DNA from: Verrucomicrobiia bacterium | GTDB lineage: Bacteria; Verrucomicrobiota; Verrucomicrobiia; Palsa-1439 | Direction: 5' to 3' | Length of the DNA stretch: 54,852 nucleotides | Assembly (NCBI GenBank): GCA_050013395.1 | Contig: JBEKFI010000008.1 | Location: 1 to 54,852 of the forward strand | Shown here: positions 3,661 to 54,083 of the stretch, in pieces | Layout of the letters: each line of letters opens with the position of its first letter | Position numbering within the stretch: position 1 is the first letter of the stretch | Notes under the pieces: model-generated | What the model saw: only the letters and a program-made list of their open reading frames with translations | The model's database searches: none | Told to the model about the DNA's origin: nothing | Translations under genes and position numbers: made by a program

Positions 3661-4887
3661 ATGAAAACTGTAGCTGATCCGAACATCCCGTTCGTTCGCG
3701 AAGCGTTTTCCGCGCTGGGTGAAATCCAGTTTGTGGCCGGCCGCCAGATCAACGCGTCCGCAGTTCGCGACGCCGACATGCTGCTGGTGCGCTCGGTCAC
3801 GTCTGTGAACGCGGCGTTGCTGGACAACAGCAAAGTGAGATTCGTCGCCACCGCCACTATCGGGACGGATCACGTTGACCAGGCATACCTTTACGAACGC
3901 GGCATCGGCTTCGCCAGCGCCGACGGCAGCAACGCCAATTCGGTTGCCGAGTACGTCGTCACCGCGATGCTGGAAATCGCGCATCGAAACCAATTTCGCC
4001 TGCGTGACAAAGCGCTCGGCGTCGTCGGCGTCGGCAACGTCGGCCGGCGCGTTGTTCGCTACGCCGAAGCGCTCGGGATGCGCGTTCTGCAAAACGATCC
4101 GCCGCGTGAACGTGCCGAGGTAGGGCGCGACCGCCGGGCGCGCCGCGAGGGGGACGGACAGCCCGGCGGTCTGTCCCTACCACAATTCGCTTCTCTGGAA
4201 CGTCTCCTCGCCGAAGCAGACATCATCACGCTCCATGTTCCGCTGACGCGCGTAGGGCAAGCCTCCAGCTTGCCCAACTTCCTTCCCGAGGACGCCACGT
4301 TTCATTTGTTCGACAAGGACATCCTCGCGGCTCTGGAGCTGCGCAAGCCCATCCTCATCAACACCGCGCGTGGCGCCGTCGTGGACAATCAGGCGCTACT
4401 GGAAGCCATCGTGACGAAGAAGCTGAGCGGCGTCGTGCTGGACGTTTGGGAGAACGAGCCGAACATTAGGGCCGATTTGCTTGCCGCCGTTGACCTCGGC
4501 ACAGCGCACATCGCGGGTTACAGCTTCGATGGCAAGCTCAACGGCACGCAGATGATTTATCGGGCCGTGTGCGGCTTTTTCGGGATGAAACCGACATGGG
4601 AACCGGCTCTGCCGCCGCCGCCAGTCCCGCATCTGGAAGCGACCGCTGGCGCAGGCGAGGACGACGAAGACGTGTTGCGGCGCGTCATCAAGCACGTTTA
4701 CGACATCACTGCCGATGACGCCGCGTTGCGGAAGAGCGTCCGCGCCCCCGATGAAATCGGGGCAAGCTTCGACAAATCGCGTGCCGAGTATCCCGTCCGG
4801 CGCGAGTTCTTCAACACGGAGTTGACGCTGCGCGGCGCAGGCGAGTCGCTGAGACAGAAAACTGCGGCTTTGGGGTTCCGGTTATAG
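3661..4887 (+). CDS. pdxB: 4-phosphoerythronate dehydrogenase carrying two in-frame palindromic insertions
   Basis: MKTVADPNIP, LLVRSVT, TATIGTDHVD, GVGNVG, HIAGYS.DGK, R..YP.RREF; the real start is 3661, not 1933. Confidence 0.93.
   Translation: MKTVADPNIPFVREAFSALGEIQFVAGRQINASAVRDADMLLVRSVTSVNAALLDNSKVRFVATATIGTDHVDQAYLYERGIGFASADGSNANSVAEYVVTAMLEIAHRNQFRLRDKALGVVGVGNVGRRVVRYAEALGMRVLQNDPPRERAEVGRDRRARREGDGQPGGLSLPQFASLERLLAEADIITLHVPLTRVGQASSLPNFLPEDATFHLFDKDILAALELRKPILINTARGAVVDNQALLEAIVTKKLSGVVLDVWENEPNIRADLLAAVDLGTAHIAGYSFDGKLNGTQMIYRAVCGFFGMKPTWEPALPPPPVPHLEATAGAGEDDEDVLRRVIKHVYDITADDAALRKSVRAPDEIGASFDKSRAEYPVRREFFNTELTLRGAGESLRQKTAALGFRL
4120..4181 (+). repeat. GTAG-type REP doublet inserted in-frame in pdxB
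   Basis: GTAGGGCGCGACCGCCGGGCGCGCCG...CGGACAGCCCGGCGGTCTGTCCCTAC; similar copy at 11817-11879. Confidence 0.8.
4252..4275 (+). repeat. Second GTAG-type palindrome in-frame in pdxB
   Basis: GTAGGGCAAGC-CTCCA-GCTTGCCC hairpin encoding VGQASSLP. Confidence 0.7.
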
Positions 4888-7954: not shown

Positions 7955-8045
7955 GTAGCGGCGCTCCCTGCCCCGAAGGCTTTCGGGGTGAACGAGCGCC
8001 GATTGTCGGGAACGGAGAGAAGCGACGGTCATAGACCGCCGGTAC
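7955..8045 (+). repeat. GTAG-type REP doublet with a nested hairpin
   Basis: GTAGCGGCGCTC...GAGCGCCG...CGGTCATAGACCGCCGGTAC; nested CCCCGAAGGCTTTCGGGG at 7971-7988. Confidence 0.65.
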
Positions 8046-13752: not shown

Positions 13753-13923
13753 CCCGGATTATTCACAATGCGCTTAAACAACCCACAGTGTGTCACTGCT
13801 CGAACCCTCACCCTGACCCTCTCCCTTGGGAAGGGAGAGGGGAGATCTCCTCGCCCCGCTTGCGGGGAGAGGATTGAGGTGAGGGGTTGCCGGACGTTTC
13901 AGGTGGTTCATGAATAGGTCAGG
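13753..13923 (+). mobile_element. MITE copy B (171 bp)
   Basis: Imperfect TIRs CCCGGATTATTCAC / CCTGACCTATTCAT; CTAG direct repeat on both sides; internal CCCTCACCC...GGGAGAGGG palindromes. Confidence 0.88.
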
Positions 13924-14382: not shown

Positions 14383-14527
14383 GGTGAAGGAGATGGGCTT
14401 AATTGGCTCGTGTGGTTCAACCCGTTACTACCACAAACTCACTTTGTCATATCACCCGATTCTCTGGAGAAAGACAAACCCAAAACCGTGGCGGAGCGCC
14501 TGGAAACATCCCGAAACTCCCCTCGGT

Positions 14528-14620
14528 TGTCACCCTGAGCGCGGCAAAGGGTCTCAGTCGTTCGGGAAACTGTGGAAACACTAGAGATTCTTCTCCTGCC
14601 TCGGCGGGATCAGAATGACA
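14528..14620. repeat. TGTCA...TGACA palindromic repeat element with a nested hairpin
   Basis: TGTCACCCTGAGCGCGGCAAAGGGTCTC...GAGATTCTTC[TCCTGCCTCGGCGGGA]TCAGAATGACA. Confidence 0.7.
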
Positions 14621-15504
14621 AACCTTGGGGGAACGGGTTTGCGGATAGGTTCCCTTGTCTCGGGGCGCCGCGGCTGGTGGTTTGTCAACCTCCATCTGGA
14701 GGGCCATCCCGCCACGGCGGGATCGTGGCCGCCGACCGGCAACGGACGCGACGGTCGCCGACGCGCAATAGCGCTTTGGCGACGGCGCGAGCGCGTCCCT
14801 CCAACGACCATCAGCCGCAGGACGATTTCCTTGCCTTGCGCGTCCACCAGCGTGACGCGGTCGCGCTCGATCTTTTTCACCGTGGCGCCATCCACGTAAC
14901 TCGATTCGTAAACAGCGTGACCGTTGAGCACCGCGTACCTGCTATCGGGAAGGATCATGATGCCGGTGAGTCGGAAACCGTCCTCGGCGGATCCAGCGGG
15001 TGGAGCGGGACGCTGTTGCGCCGACACCCTCACGGGTTCACTGGCCCCGAACCCGTGTGCGGGGCTGGCGACAACCGGCTGCGGCGCGGGTTCATTCGGC
15101 TTTGGCTCGGTGGCCGCCGTCGGGGGCTGGGTTTCGCCGCCTGCGTGGACGGTTTGTCTCGATTCCCGGATCATCGGGGCGGCCAAGCTGACCAAAAACA
15201 CAATGGCGACGATGGCCACGAGGCTGACACACACGATCAGCACGGGCAACAACGCCGACTGCTTCTTCTGCGGGTAAACAGCCGCCGCTTGATCGACCGA
15301 TTGACCCGACGCGAACGTGCTGGCCACGCTCACAGCGTGGCTGGCCACAGGCATCGTGGCGACCGTTTCCACAGGCCTGGACTCCGCCGGGCCAAACGGT
15401 GGCGCGGGCCTTGGTGCAGGTTTCAGCGCGGGTGCAGGCTGAACGCCTGTCTTGCGCAGTTTCTCCCGCCCGGCTTTCTGCAATGCCTCATGAACCAGGC
15501 TCAT
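14581..15504 (-). CDS. ExeB/GspB-like protein with a repeat-derived C-terminal extension
   Basis: MSLVHEALQKA start coupled (ATGA) to exeA, TM helix, C-terminal LTGIM...YAVLNG...VKKIERDRVTL domain. Confidence 0.75.
   Translation of the reverse strand: MSLVHEALQKAGREKLRKTGVQPAPALKPAPRPAPPFGPAESRPVETVATMPVASHAVSVASTFASGQSVDQAAAVYPQKKQSALLPVLIVCVSLVAIVAIVFLVSLAAPMIRESRQTVHAGGETQPPTAATEPKPNEPAPQPVVASPAHGFGASEPVRVSAQQRPAPPAGSAEDGFRLTGIMILPDSRYAVLNGHAVYESSYVDGATVKKIERDRVTLVDAQGKEIVLRLMVVGGTRSRRRQSAIARRRPSRPLPVGGHDPAVAGWPSRWRLTNHQPRRPETREPIRKPVPPRFVILIPPRQEKNL
14697..14803. repeat. TGGAGGG...CCCTCCA REP-like doublet with two nested hairpins
   Basis: Inverted ends; nested ATCCCGCCACGGCGGGAT (14706-14723) and GTCGCCGACGCGCAATAGCGCTTTGGCGAC (14754-14783). 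Confidence 0.7.
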
Positions 15505-32203: not shown

Positions 32204-34285
32204 TTACAACTCGACGGCTTGCCCCGTCCGGAGCGAACGCACGATGGCAAACGTCGCCCGCGTACTGGCGATGATCTCCTCCAGCGGGATCGGCATCGGG
32301 CCGCCGCTCTTCGCCGCCTCAACGAATCGCCGCACCTCCTCGGCTTGGCCTTTGTCGCGGAAATCCTCCACGATCAGATTCTTTCCGCCGCCAAACGCCT
32401 CAAAGTACTCTTTGACCAGCGATGGGTCAGCGACGTCGAAATAATCAATCGCGCCGACCGACCCGTCCGTAAAGCGCAGCGAGACTTGCACGTTGTCGCC
32501 GCCGAACCCTTGCGCGAACACCCGCGCGGGTTTCGCCCGCGCAGCGAACTGCAGGAAATCAACGAAGTGGCATACCTCGCCGACAATCCGACCGCCGCCG
32601 ACGTCAGGATCATTGACCCAATGATCGCGCGGCAGCGGTACGACGCTGACGCGGTAGCGCATCACCAGCGGCGTGAGAAGCTCGCGCGTCTTCGCCGCGA
32701 AGGGCGCAAACCGACGGTTGAATCCGACCATCAAGCGCGCGTTCTTCGTCTCCTCAATGGTGCGGATGATCTCTTCGATCCCGCCGTGGCGGGACTCGTG
32801 CAAGCAGAGCGGCTTCTCGCAGAAGACCGTCTTGCCCGCCTTCAACGCTTCGCAAACGATCAGCGCGTGCAAATCGTGGCGCGTGGCAATCAGCACCGAG
32901 TTGACCGACTTGTCCGCAATCACCTCGCGCCAATCGGTCGTGCACGTCCCAAACCCAAATTTCTCTCCGGCTTTCTGCGCTTTGACGCCTGTGGCCGTGC
33001 AGACGGCGCGGAGCGTCACGTCGGAATTCGCCCTGAACTGCGGCAGCAAAACTCCCTGCGCATAATTCCCCGCGCCGATCACACCGAGGACAACCGAGGA
33101 GCGTGGGAGCGTCGGAGCGTGAATCGCAGAGCGTCCTTCCGCCTTCCGCCCTCCGCCCTCATCCCTGTATTTAATAAGCACGCCGACAAACCGCTCGCCG
33201 GTTTTGCCCGTGATCAACTCATAAGCTTTCGGCGCATCATCGATGGGAAACGTGTGGGTGATCAGCGGCGCAACATCGATGCGCTGCGACGCCAGCAACT
33301 GCAGGAACGCTTCCATGTTTCGTTGCTCCGTCCAGCGCACGTAGCCGATGGGATAATCCAGCCCCTTTTCCTCGTAAAGCGGATCGTAGCGACCGGGCCC
33401 ATAGCTGCGGGAGAATCGGAAATCGAGTTCCTTGTGATAAAACAGATCGCGCGGCACTTCCATGCCTGTCACGCCAACCATGACAACGCGCCCGCGGTCG
33501 CGGCAAATTTTTGCAGCCAGCACGATCGGTTCGTTCGTTTCCGTCGAAGCCGCGATGATGACCGCGTCCACGCCGAAACCGTTCGTCAGCCCCGCCGCGA
33601 TTCGCTCCACGTCATCGCGCGGGACAACGGCGACTTCGTCGCAGCCGCAACGCTTGGCCAGTTCGCACGCCGCCTCACTCACGTCGATGCCAAGCACGCG
33701 GCAGCCCGCCGCTTTCGCAATCTGCATCGTCAACTGCCCGACCAATCCCAGACCGATGACCGCGATAGCTTCGCCGAGGCGCGCCTCCGCCTGGCGGACA
33801 CCCTGCATGGCGATTGAGCTGAGCGTCGTGAACGCGGCGTGGGCCAATTCCACTCCCTCAGGCACTTTGGCACTTAGGTTCTGAGGCACTGCCACAACTT
33901 CCGCGTGGCTCGCGTAATCCTGTCCCGCGCACGCCACCCGGTCGCCGACAGAAAATCCAGCGACACCTTCGCCGACCTCCAGCACTGTGCCAGCGGTGGA
34001 GTAGCCGAGCATTTTCCACTGATCGAGACGGGACTGCACCCTGCGCATCGTCGCCGCGATTCCCTCGCGCTTGACGGTGTTCAGGACCTGCCTGACCAGA
34101 TCCGGCCGGGAGCGGGCCTTGCCGACCAGCGATTGCTGGGCGAGGCTGACCGTCGCACGTTCCGTCCCTGCGCTGACCAGCGAAAATGCGTTGCGGACGA
34201 GCAGCAAGCCCGGCGCCGCAACCGGTGTCGGCACGTCCACCAACTTGATATCCCCTGTTTTGAAGTCCTGCACGAGCTGTTTCAT
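32204..34285 (-). CDS. Bi-domain oxidoreductase (MDR alcohol dehydrogenase-like plus Gfo/Idh/MocA)
   Basis: SLVSAGTE, SRSYGPGRYD, GYVRWTEQRN, EKPL, GFNRRF. Confidence 0.92.
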   Translation of the reverse strand: MKQLVQDFKTGDIKLVDVPTPVAAPGLLLVRNAFSLVSAGTERATVSLAQQSLVGKARSRPDLVRQVLNTVKREGIAATMRRVQSRLDQWKMLGYSTAGTVLEVGEGVAGFSVGDRVACAGQDYASHAEVVAVPQNLSAKVPEGVELAHAAFTTLSSIAMQGVRQAEARLGEAIAVIGLGLVGQLTMQIAKAAGCRVLGIDVSEAACELAKRCGCDEVAVVPRDDVERIAAGLTNGFGVDAVIIAASTETNEPIVLAAKICRDRGRVVMVGVTGMEVPRDLFYHKELDFRFSRSYGPGRYDPLYEEKGLDYPIGYVRWTEQRNMEAFLQLLASQRIDVAPLITHTFPIDDAPKAYELITGKTGERFVGVLIKYRDEGGGRKAEGRSAIHAPTLPRSSVVLGVIGAGNYAQGVLLPQFRANSDVTLRAVCTATGVKAQKAGEKFGFGTCTTDWREVIADKSVNSVLIATRHDLHALIVCEALKAGKTVFCEKPLCLHESRHGGIEEIIRTIEETKNARLMVGFNRRFAPFAAKTRELLTPLVMRYRVSVVPLPRDHWVNDPDVGGGRIVGEVCHFVDFLQFAARAKPARVFAQGFGGDNVQVSLRFTDGSVGAIDYFDVADPSLVKEYFEAFGGGKNLIVEDFRDKGQAEEVRRFVEAAKSGGPMPIPLEEIIASTRATFAIVRSLRTGQAVEL
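33098..33166. repeat. 8-mer and 7-mer tandem repeats in the interdomain linker
   Basis: GGAGCGTG/C x3, then CCTTCCG-CCTTCCG-CCCTCCG-CCCTCAT. Confidence 0.7.
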
Positions 34286-38228: not shown

Positions 38229-38427
38229 CCTGACTTATTCATGAACTTTTGCGCAACGAACTGCCCCTCACCTTGATCCTCTCCCCGCACGCAGGGCGAG
38301 GAGATTTCCCCTCTCCCTTTCCAAGGGAGAGGGGCTGCCCGCCGAAGCCTCGGCGCAGGCGGGTCAGGGTGAGGGTTCGAGCTGTGACAGACTGTCGAGC
38401 TTTCAAGCGTCTCGTGAATAATCCGGG
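38229..38427 (-). mobile_element. MITE copy C (199 bp)
   Basis: Same termini; ATAG on both sides (CTAT in element orientation). Confidence 0.9.
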
Positions 38428-48891: not shown

Positions 48892-49098
48892 GGTGTGAAC
48901 CGCAACGTATCCTCAGTGCGACTCTAATCTGCCCAACGTTCCGTAACATGTCGAGGAGTTTTGCTCGCGGTGTCTCATCGCGTCGTCGGTGGTCGCCATG
49001 GGAACAGCGTTGATCATGCGTTGTCCAACCATCCTAATCACACGCGGTGCTTCGCCTTCCCTTGACAAAACGGTCAGAACCGAGCATAAAACCACTAG

Positions 49099-49297
49099 CC
49101 CGGATTATTCACGATGCGCTTGAAAGCTCGATAGTCTGTCACAGCTCGACCCCTCACCCTGACCCGCCTGCGCCGAGGCTTCGGCGGGCAGGCCCTCTCC
49201 CTTGGAAAGGGAGAGGAGAAATCTCCTCGCCCCGCATGCGGGGAGAGGATCAAGGTGAGGGGCAGTTAGTTGCGCAAAACTTCATGAATAAGTCAGG
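49099..49297 (+). mobile_element. MITE copy D (199 bp)
   Basis: Same termini; flanks CTAG / CTGG. Confidence 0.88.
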
Positions 49298-49451
49298 CTG
49301 GGTGCCTTCGGATAGAATCAGGGCAAAATGGACAAGACCCACCGTTGGCTTTACAGCCAAATGACTGGAAGGTAGATTTGAGAGAGAAGTGATCCGTATC
49401 TTAACACGATCTCCTGCCGAGGGAGGCCAATAGACGGACAGGTCAAACGCC

Positions 49452-52352: not shown

Positions 52353-53573
52353 ATGAGGGTGGCATGGCTAGCGCCGTATCCTGTTCAGTTGCTGGAGCCG
52401 TCGGTGCGACTGGCGAGAAGGCAGGACGCTTTTCAGTCCTGTAGCTGGATTGTCCATCTCTCCTCCGCCTTGGCTGGGCGGCAGGACATCGAACTGCATC
52501 TTGTGACGGAGAGCACGTTGGTGCCGTGTGATCAGGTGGTCGAGTCCGGCGGAATTGTGTTCCACGTGCTCAAGGCGAGTCTGCCGTTGGTCAACCGGGG
52601 GTTCCCGCCTTGGCTCCCGTTGGATGTGGTCAGCGGGTTCCGTTACAATGTGAAGCGTCAAGTGCGGGAAATCGAACGCATTGATCCGGATGTGGTGCAC
52701 CCTCATGGAACAGAGAGGGCCTATGCGATGGCTGGTGTAGCGTCCGGCTGGCCATGCGTGATCTCCATACAAGGCATTATCTCCGAGTACGTCAAGATTT
52801 ATCGCAATTGGGCGCTCGGTAGGATCGCGCGTTTGGAGGAACGCACGGTGCAAGAGGGCCGCTACTTCATCGCCCAATCGAAAGATGTCCGGAGATTCTT
52901 GGAGTCGGTGAATCCGGCGGCGCGGATCTTCGACATCGAGCTTCCAGTCGACCCTTTGTACTTCCGCGTGCGCAGGCATGAGCAATCTCAGAGGAGGATT
53001 CTGTTCGTCGGGAGTATCGAGCCTCGGAAAGGGGTTCCGGAGTTGATTAGTGGGTTTGCGGATTTCTGCCGTGATCACAAGGGCTACCGACTCATCGTGA
53101 TCGGGAATGGCAACAAGGGGTTTGTGGCGGCTATGAAGGAACTGGCAGAGTGCTGCGGAGTTGGATCGCAGGTTGAATGGCGCGGATTCCAAGTGGCCTC
53201 TCAGATTGCCCGTGAATGTGAGACTGCTGCGCTGCTGGTGGCACCTTCTCGGGCCGAGACATTCTGCTGTGTCGTCGCCGAAGGCATGGCTGCTGGTTTG
53301 CCAATTGTGGCCACGAATGTGGCCGGGATCCGTTCTGTACTGCAAGACCGTCGCACGGGTTTGCTCGTGGAATCGCAGGCCCCGGAGGCCTTGGCCTCTG
53401 CGATGCGGGAGTTGGTTGACAACCCTCTGCTTTCAGAAACCCTGGGACAGCAAGCTCGGGCAACTGCAAAACAACGATTTGACAGAGACGTTTTGGCAGC
53501 AAGAATCTATGAGGTGTATCAGGAAGTGCTCGCAAAAGAAGCGCCTAGCCCGGATTATTCACGATGCGCTTGA
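52353..53573 (+). CDS. GT4 glycosyltransferase
   Basis: HGTE, FVGSIEPRKG, ETF..VVAEGMAAG; last codons come from MITE copy E. Confidence 0.92.
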   Translation: MRVAWLAPYPVQLLEPSVRLARRQDAFQSCSWIVHLSSALAGRQDIELHLVTESTLVPCDQVVESGGIVFHVLKASLPLVNRGFPPWLPLDVVSGFRYNVKRQVREIERIDPDVVHPHGTERAYAMAGVASGWPCVISIQGIISEYVKIYRNWALGRIARLEERTVQEGRYFIAQSKDVRRFLESVNPAARIFDIELPVDPLYFRVRRHEQSQRRILFVGSIEPRKGVPELISGFADFCRDHKGYRLIVIGNGNKGFVAAMKELAECCGVGSQVEWRGFQVASQIARECETAALLVAPSRAETFCCVVAEGMAAGLPIVATNVAGIRSVLQDRRTGLLVESQAPEALASAMRELVDNPLLSETLGQQARATAKQRFDRDVLAARIYEVYQEVLAKEAPSPDYSRCA

Positions 53574-53768
53574 AAGCTCGACAGTCTGTCATAGCTCGAA
53601 CCCTCACCCTGATCCGCCTGCGCCGAGGCTTCGGCGGGCAGGCCCTCTCCCTTGGAAAGGGAGAGGGGAAATTTCCTCGCCCCGCATGCGGGGAGAGGAT
53701 CAATCCCGCTCTGAGCGGGATCAAGGTGAGGGGCAGTTCGTTGCGCAAAACTTCATGAACAAGTCCGG
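53549..53768 (+). mobile_element. MITE copy E (220 bp, with an extra 21-bp hairpin insertion)
   Basis: CTAG on both sides; extra TCCCGCTCTGAGCGGGA+TCAA relative to copy D. Confidence 0.9.
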
Positions 53769-53775
53769 CTAGGAG

Positions 53776-54083
53776 ATGAGCCTATTGGGCATTCACATTG
53801 GTCATGACAGCAGCACGTGTCTGGCGCGGGACGGGCAGATCGTTGCCGATGTGGCGGAGGGATTCCTTCAATGGTCGCCGATGGTGAAACGGGTCTGCTG
53901 GTTCCACCACGCAATCCGGAGGCGATTCTCCACTTGCTGGAGCACCCTGCCGAGCGAGTGGCGTTGGGGAAGAACGCGCGACAAGTCGCCCGCGAGCGAT
54001 ATGACCCGGAACAAGTGGCGACGGAAACACTCAAAGCCTACCGTGAAATCTTGAATTCATCCGGTTCTCCAGCAGGGATCTGA
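53776..54083 (+). pseudogene. Chimeric remnant: carbamoyltransferase N-stub plus out-of-frame GT4 C-terminus
   Basis: LGIHIGHDSSTCLARDGQIVADVAE, then GGIPSMVADGETGLLVPP...AYREIL. Confidence 0.82.

Follow-up and report, generated by a model that had tools for sequence, protein, structure and literature searches.

A mobile 21-nt hairpin unit was identified in a 54,852-nt stretch of DNA from a Verrucomicrobiia bacterium (contig JBEKFI010000008.1), where it sits inside a MITE, a miniature transposable element with inverted repeats. The whole stretch is called the window here, its coordinates are those of the forward strand, and the genome that holds it (3.52 Mb, 59% G+C) is G000; other G numbers denote related genomes. 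The unit that is gained or lost consists of the palindrome (T/C)CC-CGCTC-N-GAGCG-GG(A/G) followed by a YNRR tail. We are confident that the hairpin is a discrete unit that is both gained and lost. Gain of the 21-nt unit at YYNR words was observed, and loss or replacement probably occurs as well. A preliminary description of this DNA, made from the letters of the window, had proposed that the hairpin behaves as an independent insertion unit, and filled and empty sites differing by 21 nt among relatives of the genome bear this out.

Read directly, positions 53700-53724 are TCAA TCCCGCTC T GAGCGGGA TCAA. The target word TCAA (53700-53703), present once in the empty copies, is followed by the 17-nt perfect palindrome TCCCGCTC-T-GAGCGGGA (53704-53720), which is the hairpin of the inserted unit, and by a 4-nt tail TCAA (53721-53724) that arrives with the hairpin. 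The filled MITE copy E (53545-53773, plus strand), a mosaic of hairpin modules ending GGAGAGGA-TCAA-GGTGAGGGG, was compared with the empty copy D (49095-49302, plus strand). The difference is exactly 21 nt, namely TCCCGCTCTGAGCGGGA plus TCAA at 53704-53724. A repeat finder pairs 49095-49253 with 53545-53703 (96%) and 49247-49302 with 53718-53773 (93%), and the start-to-start spacing thereby rises from 4450 to 4471, which makes copy E the longer one by 21 nt. When the five MITE copies were aligned, the extra block was confined to copy E; copy D has a single TCAA at 49250-49253. The alignment, the spacing and this lone TCAA confirm what had been described earlier, namely a copy E 21 bp longer than copy D, a hairpin between duplicated TCAA words, and a filled and an empty site within one window. 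Two more empty junctions are present, one in copy B (38264-38283, minus strand; the word reads TTGA at 38273-38276 on the plus strand) and one in copy C (13867-13886, plus strand; the word is the variant TTGA at 13874-13877). As single-stranded DNA, the 21-nt unit is predicted to form a stem of 8 bp closed by a 3-nt loop (-8.6 kcal/mol, z = -4.0), and the empty site is unfolded. An Rfam scan of 53400-53900 gave no match near the gathering score.

A second contrast of empty and filled sites is provided by a 30-nt hairpin module ending CAGG, which copies A and C lack and copies D (49166-49195), E (53616-53645) and B contain. At least 12 MITE copies of three MITE subfamilies are filled at the TCAA junction, with T or A as the loop base. 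One orthologous MITE copy is filled in G001, with loop C, and empty in G000. The mosaic MITEs of this lineage are hairpin modules joined by 4-nt linkers.

The hairpin is far more frequent than its composition predicts. The pattern TCCCGC-N1-7-GCGGGA occurs three times in the window against 0.09 expected. The genome-wide count that the preliminary description had proposed, made with TCCCGC-N2-5-GCGGGA, gave 95 occurrences, well above the background of 20 shuffles (mean 3.35, maximum 7), and the pattern ranks 2nd among 384 stems of equal composition. The core CGCTCNGAGCG was counted 53 times in the genome against a background of 13, and the exact 17-mer 31 times against 0 in shuffles. A core survey demanding 7 flanking bases retained 52 occurrences, 36 of which are perfect palindromes with an 8-bp stem and a 1-nt loop, the outer three pairs being complementary. 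In these 36 copies the outer triplets co-vary (TCC/GGA, CCC/GGG, TCA/TGA, CCA/TGG, TGG/CCA). The 4-nt words on the two sides are identical at 4/4 positions in 25 copies, at 3/4 in 8, at 2/4 in 2 and at none in 1. Direct 4-nt flanks were found for 28 of the 210 perfect palindromes of this geometry in the genome (about 0.8 expected); 25 of the 28 have this core and one has a CGCCC variant. A wider scan for palindromes flanked by direct repeats returned 28 family matches and 49 others (about 37 expected); it brought up no second family of similar size in G000, just a small CCAG-flanked group. The earlier picture of a sequence-specific unit, far smaller than a MITE, that spreads into unrelated hosts is supported by these counts and by the pairs of empty and filled sites. 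At one locus of G000 (C192:1339-1401) three 17-nt hairpins form a tandem array with a 21-nt period, a 4-nt word coming after each (ccag, taaa, tgaa).

Orthologous sites were compared between genomes, and further empty and filled pairs, whose absence would have spoken against the preliminary description, are many; 13 orthologous pairs differ by exactly 21 nt. Between G001 and G000, 22 sites were compared. G001 is filled and G000 empty by exactly 21 nt at four of them; seven are filled in both genomes (one with a non-family stem), one carries a different hairpin in G000, three are complex and seven have no paired match. For G008 and G009 against G000, 20 of 40 sites gave paired matches; nine of these show a length difference of exactly 21 nt, and at one both genomes are filled. 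The site C51:20653 is empty in 16 of 18 genomes, with 21 nt more in G001 and 42 nt more, equal to two 17+4 units, in G009. The insertions of G001 and G009, which belong to two genera, begin at the same nucleotide. Occupied sites also differ in content. The same CCAG..CCAG site holds different hairpins in G000 at C70:10774 and in G001 at L063, and again in G000 at C49:751 and in G001 at L300; at both, a 17-nt CGCTC type stands against a 20-nt CCCCGAC type with flanks 85-97% identical.

Similar contrasts are found inside genes. The longest open frame was taken for each of 19 copies, giving 20 frames (two for one copy), and Pfam matches were obtained in 14 of them. The unit lies within the matched domain in D-Tyr-tRNA deacylase (dtd), LpxB, an NAD-dependent epimerase and an MFS transporter. 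In homoserine dehydrogenase (hom) it lies at residue 248, just past the ACT match (208-245). It falls between domains, or next to one, in an Eco57I-like methylase, a NirDL/AsnC-type regulator, a phosphodiesterase, a DUF362 protein, ParB, MalQ, a YfhO-like protein and TPR proteins, and another copy, judged by eye, interrupts ...SPYW|LWFT... of a small membrane protein. The unit equals 7 codons and reads, depending on frame, PRSERG, PA(L/P/R/Q)SG or PL(R/G)AG. The palindrome holds a stop codon in one frame per strand only, and only with loop T (loop A for the other strand). The length of 7 codons and the single, loop-dependent stop frame per strand explain why the unit survives inside genes. Relative to the sense strand, the strand that allows G.T pairing split about 5 to 4 in a hand tally of nine genic copies. 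The family steadily supplies core enzymes (Dtd, LpxB, homoserine dehydrogenase, the epimerase and the MFS transporter) with 7-residue insertions.

For dtd, whose copy in G000 lies at C29:11473, G000 and its congener G001 read ATPL-HPAPSGI-KVAEG, and 10 other relatives read ATPLKVAEG or equivalents, exactly 7 residues shorter. In the epimerase, whose copy in G000 lies at C77:13446, the residues NPALSGI are missing in 5/5 homologues found, and the DNA of G000 reads GACATCAA[TCCCGCTCTGAGCGGGATCAA]GCCA. The homoserine dehydrogenases of G005 and G011 look empty because they have one continuous short linker, and in G015 and G007 the linker is of other lengths. In this gene, two CCAG words enclose the 17-mer in G000 and a different 20-nt hairpin in G001. 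In contigs from public runs, the epimerase hairpin was covered in just one run, which may be the source itself, and was identical; the runs are all contigs and say nothing about polymorphism. One relative in these contigs has 127 other letters in place of a 139-nt stretch. The Dtd of G000 (C29:11380-11950, locus L021/L029) also has about 29 extra residues near its N-terminus besides the 7-residue insert; neither G001 nor G005 matches residues 24-52 of the G000 query, their alignments falling into 1-23 and 53-190.

A junction rule, of the kind that the preliminary description had suggested looking for, was drawn from the flanks of the copies. Flanks were surveyed in 81 distinct copies from G000, G001, G008 and G009, giving 162 outward flanks. 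Outward position +1 is Y in 160/162, position +3 is R in 148/162 and position +4 is R in 156/162; positions +1 and +4 are jointly T..A or C..G in 151/162. Written on one strand, this outward rule gives YYNR for the left flank and YNRR for the right flank. The unit lands directly 3' of a YYNR word (TCAA, CCAG/CTGG, TTCA, CTTG and others). Words that fit both YYNR and YNRR (TCAA, TTGA, CCAG, CTGG) therefore appear as 4-nt direct repeats. A simple 4-bp target-site duplication does not serve as a general account; it fits the 25 of 36 G000 copies with a perfect 4-nt repeat and fails for the G008 subfamily (CTTG..CGAG) and for three young G001 insertions, among them CTGG/CAGG and CGCG/CAAG. The dominant form in G008 is CTTG[17]CGAG-CCGG, and the empty site in G000 is CTTG|CCGG. 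The tail CGAG differs from the target word CTTG, which indicates that the tail is brought by the hairpin rather than templated by the target. Ten filled and empty pairs tabulated by hand can be read as a target word plus a unit of 17 nt and tail; two-sided microhomology fits them equally.

The same grammar of foot plus flank, YYNR | YCCCG...CGGGR | YNRR, is common to other hairpins, which build the mosaic MITEs and flank cassettes of the nuclease family DUF559. Perfect hairpins of G000 with a YCCCG...CGGGR foot obey the flank rule on both sides in 98/313 cases, many of them in repeated MITE contexts and hence non-independent; among 3232 control palindromes 10 or 30 do so, depending on register. 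Two such neighbours are present in the window: the YCCCG-foot module CCTG-CCCCGAAGGCTTTCGGGG-TGAA (7971-7988), which obeys the rule, and CTGG-CCCCGAACCCGTGTGCGGGG-CTGG (15041-15068), an imperfect hairpin between direct CTGG words.

The distribution of the family among genomes is patchy. Core counts, each given with its reversed control, are 53/7 in G000, 42/2 in G001, 51/4 in G008, 20/1 in G009, 30/5 in G025 and 15/3 in G005; the core is at background in most of 41 relatives. The 13-mer CCGCTCNGAGCGG was found 33, 22, 29, 13, 1 and 7 times in the same six genomes, and at most 5 times in all others among 47 genomes of the order. The expansions are confined to three genera. In public genomes outside the clade the 17-mer has direct flanks in just 5 of 118 sampled occurrences, and four of these five are in records titled Verrucomicrobia, Verrucomicrobiia or Planctomycetota.

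As to how the unit moves, we tentatively lean towards an enzyme that is specific for the hairpin foot and acts in trans, although we hold this at somewhat less than an even expectation. Such an enzyme would recognise the foot of the extruded hairpin and cut after the 4-nt word on each side. The scheme is formally like the 'peel and paste' transposition of IS200/IS605 elements, in which the word on the left remains with the target and the one on the right moves along with the element. It would account for precise gain, precise loss and the re-use of hot sites. The candidate enzymes are a Vsr-like DUF559 nuclease and a Y1 transposase of the type associated with repetitive extragenic palindromes (REPs), known as REP-associated tyrosine transposase (RAYT). 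Three features point towards an enzyme: the structured flank rule, the hot sites and the expansions restricted to certain lineages.

Several observations weigh against enzymatic movement. No Y1 gene is flanked by the 21-nt hairpin at 10/10 loci of G000, at both loci of G008 or at four of the six loci of G001, and no enzyme is linked to it directly. Y1 counts do not track hairpin copy number over 41 genomes. IS91-type Y2 transposases, whose target is CTTG/GTTC, were rejected as candidates; PF04986 is absent from G000, G008, G009 and G025 and gave one marginal match in G001. DUF559 matches occur in 6/6 hairpin-rich genomes and in 13/35 others, an association that is overstated since the genomes compared are kin, and DUF559 occurs without hairpin expansion in G018 (4 matches), G007 and G021. 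Tested against local GC skew, the strand that allows G.T pairing shows no significant bias (p = 0.11 and 0.42). In G008, the CCGG beyond the tail is conserved as well as the target word CTTG, for which two-sided microhomology is the simpler account. Where sister genomes hold different hairpins between the same CCAG words, conversion rather than transposition could be the cause. The two-sided matches of G008, the imperfect repeats and the replacement of hairpin by hairpin favour copy-choice.

Enzyme-free copy-choice is possible, if doubtful, as an explanation; templated repair, which the preliminary description had also named, stands as a rival too. In copy-choice, replication would stall at a hairpin or close to one, the nascent end, carrying a word of 1-4 nt, would switch to a distant hairpin, copy the hairpin and its tail, and return by microhomology. 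The same process would convert hairpins at occupied sites, and templating within a hairpin would keep stems perfect. It agrees with the lack of a cognate mobiliser in the Y1 and Y2 searches, and with flank words that are specific to a subfamily and match on both sides (CTTG[17]CGAG-CCGG against CTTG|CCGG). The repeats around young insertions are imperfect and share 1-3 nt at their 3' ends (CTGG/CAGG, TTTA/TTGA, CGCG/CAAG). At hom and C70, identical feet (CCAG..CCCCG / CGGGG..CCAG) enclose different hairpins in sister genomes, and the perfect palindromes (36/52 copies) have compensatory outer pairs. However, the Y-N-R-R rule with complementary positions 1 and 4 looks like recognition or structural constraint and not like simple descent. 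The re-use of the same nucleotide in two genera and the expansions in three genera suggest a lineage-specific factor. Also counting against copy-choice, a sequence is not known to have reached dozens of unlinked loci through ectopic template switching on 4 nt of homology.

A more specific form of the enzymatic reading involves the DUF559 cassettes. In G000 there are four cassettes, one of them frameshifted, and a fragment; the cassettes lie at C1:60178-60501, C11:8366-8689, C116:9264-9575 and C1:31514-31835, the last split into two frames. The cassette protein matches PDB 3hrl (E = 2e-22). The cassette layout, established at 14 loci in 8 genomes, is hairpin-GGGGAGAGGA-T(C/T)AA-GGTGAGGGG-ORF-CCCTCACC-CTGA-hairpin, where ORF is the open reading frame. 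By this layout, the junction at which MITEs take up the 21-nt unit is the cassette 5' junction. The cassette 5' junction is itself filled at C1:31867 in G000 (one of four cassettes) and at C51:60135 in G001 (one of two). DUF559 is a weak candidate mobiliser because the preferred TCAA target is this junction. A survey of PD-(D/E)XK enzymes places DUF559 with Vsr and a homing endonuclease (PMC3424549). It is unlikely, though worth stating, that the 21-nt hairpins and their YCCCG-foot sister modules are satellites of the Vsr-like cassettes, with the nuclease nicking both sides and lifting out or pasting in the 17+4 unit. In the extruded hairpin, the flanking words would pair as CTGG/CTGG or TTGA/TTGA and leave T.G and G.T mismatches between two Watson-Crick pairs. 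These mismatches would come near the CTWGG T/G substrate of Vsr, so that a nick on each side could release or admit the unit. If true, this would be nuclease-driven hairpin movement, distinct from HUH and DDE transposition, that writes 7-residue loops into housekeeping proteins. The MITEs of the window look like rearranged derivatives of DUF559 cassette ends that lack the open reading frame.

Another idea is that of a classical REP mobilised by a RAYT (Y1 HUH) transposase of the genome, which we consider quite improbable. The geometry of target word and tail word agrees with IS200/IS605 chemistry (IS608, ISDra2), and Y1_Tnp (PF01797) has 10 matches in G000. Intragenic REPs are on record in Verrucomicrobia in passages of PMC3733652. 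The preliminary description had likewise thought of an HUH or RAYT-type enzyme, and the Y1 searches lend this no support; its statement that no mobiliser is visible holds for the window. The hairpin lacks the GTAG/CGTC tag. Where repeats flank the Y1 genes, they are a different REP of the gene's own, tagged GTAG or GGAGT (most G000 genes and both G008 genes; none at four G001 loci). The gains are single hairpins, not doublets. G009, 91% complete, combines 20 copies with no Y1 match; in G008, 51 copies stand beside two weak Y1 matches that have their own REPs, and G017 has 15 Y1 matches with hairpins at background. The one family hairpin less than 2.5 kb from a Y1 gene is on C29, inside the neighbouring dtd. 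The RAYT next to this dtd copy was rejected as the mobiliser, being part of a dtd-Y1 gene pair kept in relatives without the hairpin. In G000 (C29:10640-12349, L004), a single open frame of 570 codons holds both dtd and the RAYT-like Y1_Tnp, and GTAG REPs separate and follow the two; judging by contig positions, the neighbourhood recurs in G001, G016, G020, G023 and G024.

It is very improbable that the hairpin does not move at all and that an old MITE insertion spread with its MITE, with empty copies made by slippage deletion between TCAA repeats and genic copies arising by chance or selection: 10 of the 36 perfect copies do lie at the same MITE junction, and hairpins are known to stimulate deletion between short direct repeats, but outgroups polarise dtd and the epimerase as gains (for hom, 2/4 outgroups read empty), the 13 orthologous pairs off by 21 nt include MITE and non-MITE sites, the filled MITE copies come from three subfamilies with differing loop bases, and the counts of the exact 17-mer and of direct flanks exceed those of shuffles and expectation.

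In comparison with known systems, the 21-nt hairpin is one family of REP-like hairpin modules with no GTAG tag and no cognate RAYT. It works like REPs, small dispersed repeats (SDRs) and Rickettsia palindromic elements (RPEs), departs from RAYT-type REPs in tag, cognate RAYT and doublet, and is too small for a MITE. A MITE has 50-500 bp and terminal inverted repeats that come from an IS, whereas here the two 8-nt arms of a 21-nt unit are the whole element. In abundance the family resembles a REP, being a short GC-rich palindrome with 52 core copies and the excess of exact 17-mers given above. The top 11 flank words are TTGA, TCAA, TGAA, CAAG, CCAG, CTGG, CGAG, TAAA, TTCA, CAGG and TTAA; GTAG and CGTC are absent from these, and CGTC occurs once among the 162 listed flanks. 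REPINs are doublets of REPs, whereas the gains here are single 21-nt units (13 pairs) or two in tandem (42 nt). As far as passages of PMC3733652 and PMC3116915 describe them, REPs and REPINs are likewise short GC-rich palindromes in tens of copies and lineage-specific families. REP and REPIN elements with their RAYTs are treated in passages of Bertels and Rainey 2011 (PMC3116915). Passages of Di Nocera et al. 2013 (PMC3733652) describe intragenic GTAG- and CGTC-tagged REPs, including some in this phylum, with copies inside open reading frames that encode extra residues and with G-T pairing in extended stems, as in the 21-nt unit; RPEs are mentioned there as well. The differences from REPs and REPINs are the missing GTAG/CGTC tag, the lack of a RAYT flanked by the hairpin and the gain of single hairpins; with its 21 nt, the unit is near the lower limit of the 20-40 bp that REPs span.

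The unit is also comparable to several other small repeats. RPEs are palindromic elements found in frame in genes for functional proteins; they share in-frame palindromes with the 21-nt unit, but they are several times longer, some carry a CGTC tag, and they belong to another phylum. The SDRs of Nostocaceae, the subject of Elhai et al. 2008 (Genome Res 18:1484), are reportedly 21-27 nt long, hairpin-forming and inserted in other repeats. Cyanobacterial SDRs have no known mobiliser. The likeness is a tiny hairpin found in other repeats with a preferred short target. The differences are an unrelated sequence and another phylum; the family here has a 17+4 unit, a YNRR rule, many in-frame genic copies and more than 12 filled and empty pairs. 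Yeast mitochondrial mobile GC clusters are tiny GC-rich palindromes in genes and spacers with short flanking repeats, and their mechanism is unsettled; unlike the hairpin studied here, they are organellar, have AT-rich hosts and are unrelated in sequence. IS200/IS605 elements (IS608, ISDra2) and their miniature derivatives insert 3' of a tetra- or pentanucleotide, carry the right-end word along, are recognised through hairpins and excise seamlessly. They have two different subterminal hairpins and internal guide sequences, whereas here one 17-nt palindrome is the whole element, and no Y1 linkage to the 21-nt hairpin was found. In passages of PMC5861425, HIP1 is given as the SDR5 site, and the SDR work of 2008 is cited there and in passages of PMC3116915. 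A literature search found no description of the 21-nt hairpin or its junction rule; the search was not aimed by sequence and so is no proof of absence.

The movement of very small hairpin repeats (SDRs, RPEs, mitochondrial GC clusters, untagged REPs) has been an open question since they were first described. The present family is unusually clean material for it, with a fixed 21-nt unit, a simple flank rule, its filled and empty pairs and a short list of candidate enzymes. It further offers hot sites struck independently in two genera and sites where one hairpin was replaced by another. The 21-nt units can also confuse gene calling and strain comparison in metagenome-assembled genomes.

Hairpins at three other sites of the window had been assigned to the same family earlier (14706-14723, 14594-14610 and 32778-32795). 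Hairpins are indeed present there, the one at 32779 in frame, but all belong to a 16-nt sister family. The sequences at 14707-14722 and 32779-32794 are TCCCGCC-NN-GGCGGGA, with the TCCCGC foot in common and the CGCTC-N-GAGCG core absent. The copy at 32779-32794 (minus strand), TCCCGCC-GT-GGCGGGA, lies in frame in the gene at 32204-34285. At this site G000 reads LHESRHGGIEE, against LREEQ---LDE in G001, G005, G015, G007 and G008. The hairpin is a lineage-specific gain of net 9 nt in which neighbouring residues were replaced and no clean unit is seen. The copy at 14707-14722 is nested in a GGCCA..TGGCC palindrome of an intergenic repeat cluster, and a one-mismatch 16-mer at 14594-14609 forms the central module of a TGTCA-type repeat. 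A clean empty site was not found for either; G001 has 135 nt in place of the whole 315-nt cluster.

The gene at 32204-34285 (minus strand) is a 693-residue open reading frame that, judged by eye from its translation, joins an alcohol-dehydrogenase-like N-terminal half to a Gfo/Idh/MocA-type oxidoreductase half. The length of this fusion is kept in 5 relatives (open frames of 695-746 aa). The TGTCA-type repeat (14527-14560 and 14594-14625 in the window, and genome-wide) has the form TTGTCAYYCTGA-centre-GAAGRRTCTC, in which the centre is exchangeable. Its centres are GCGAAGC, GCTTGTC, the 16-nt TCCCGCC hairpin, or CCCCGAA-type hairpins after CTTG with the tail CGGG.

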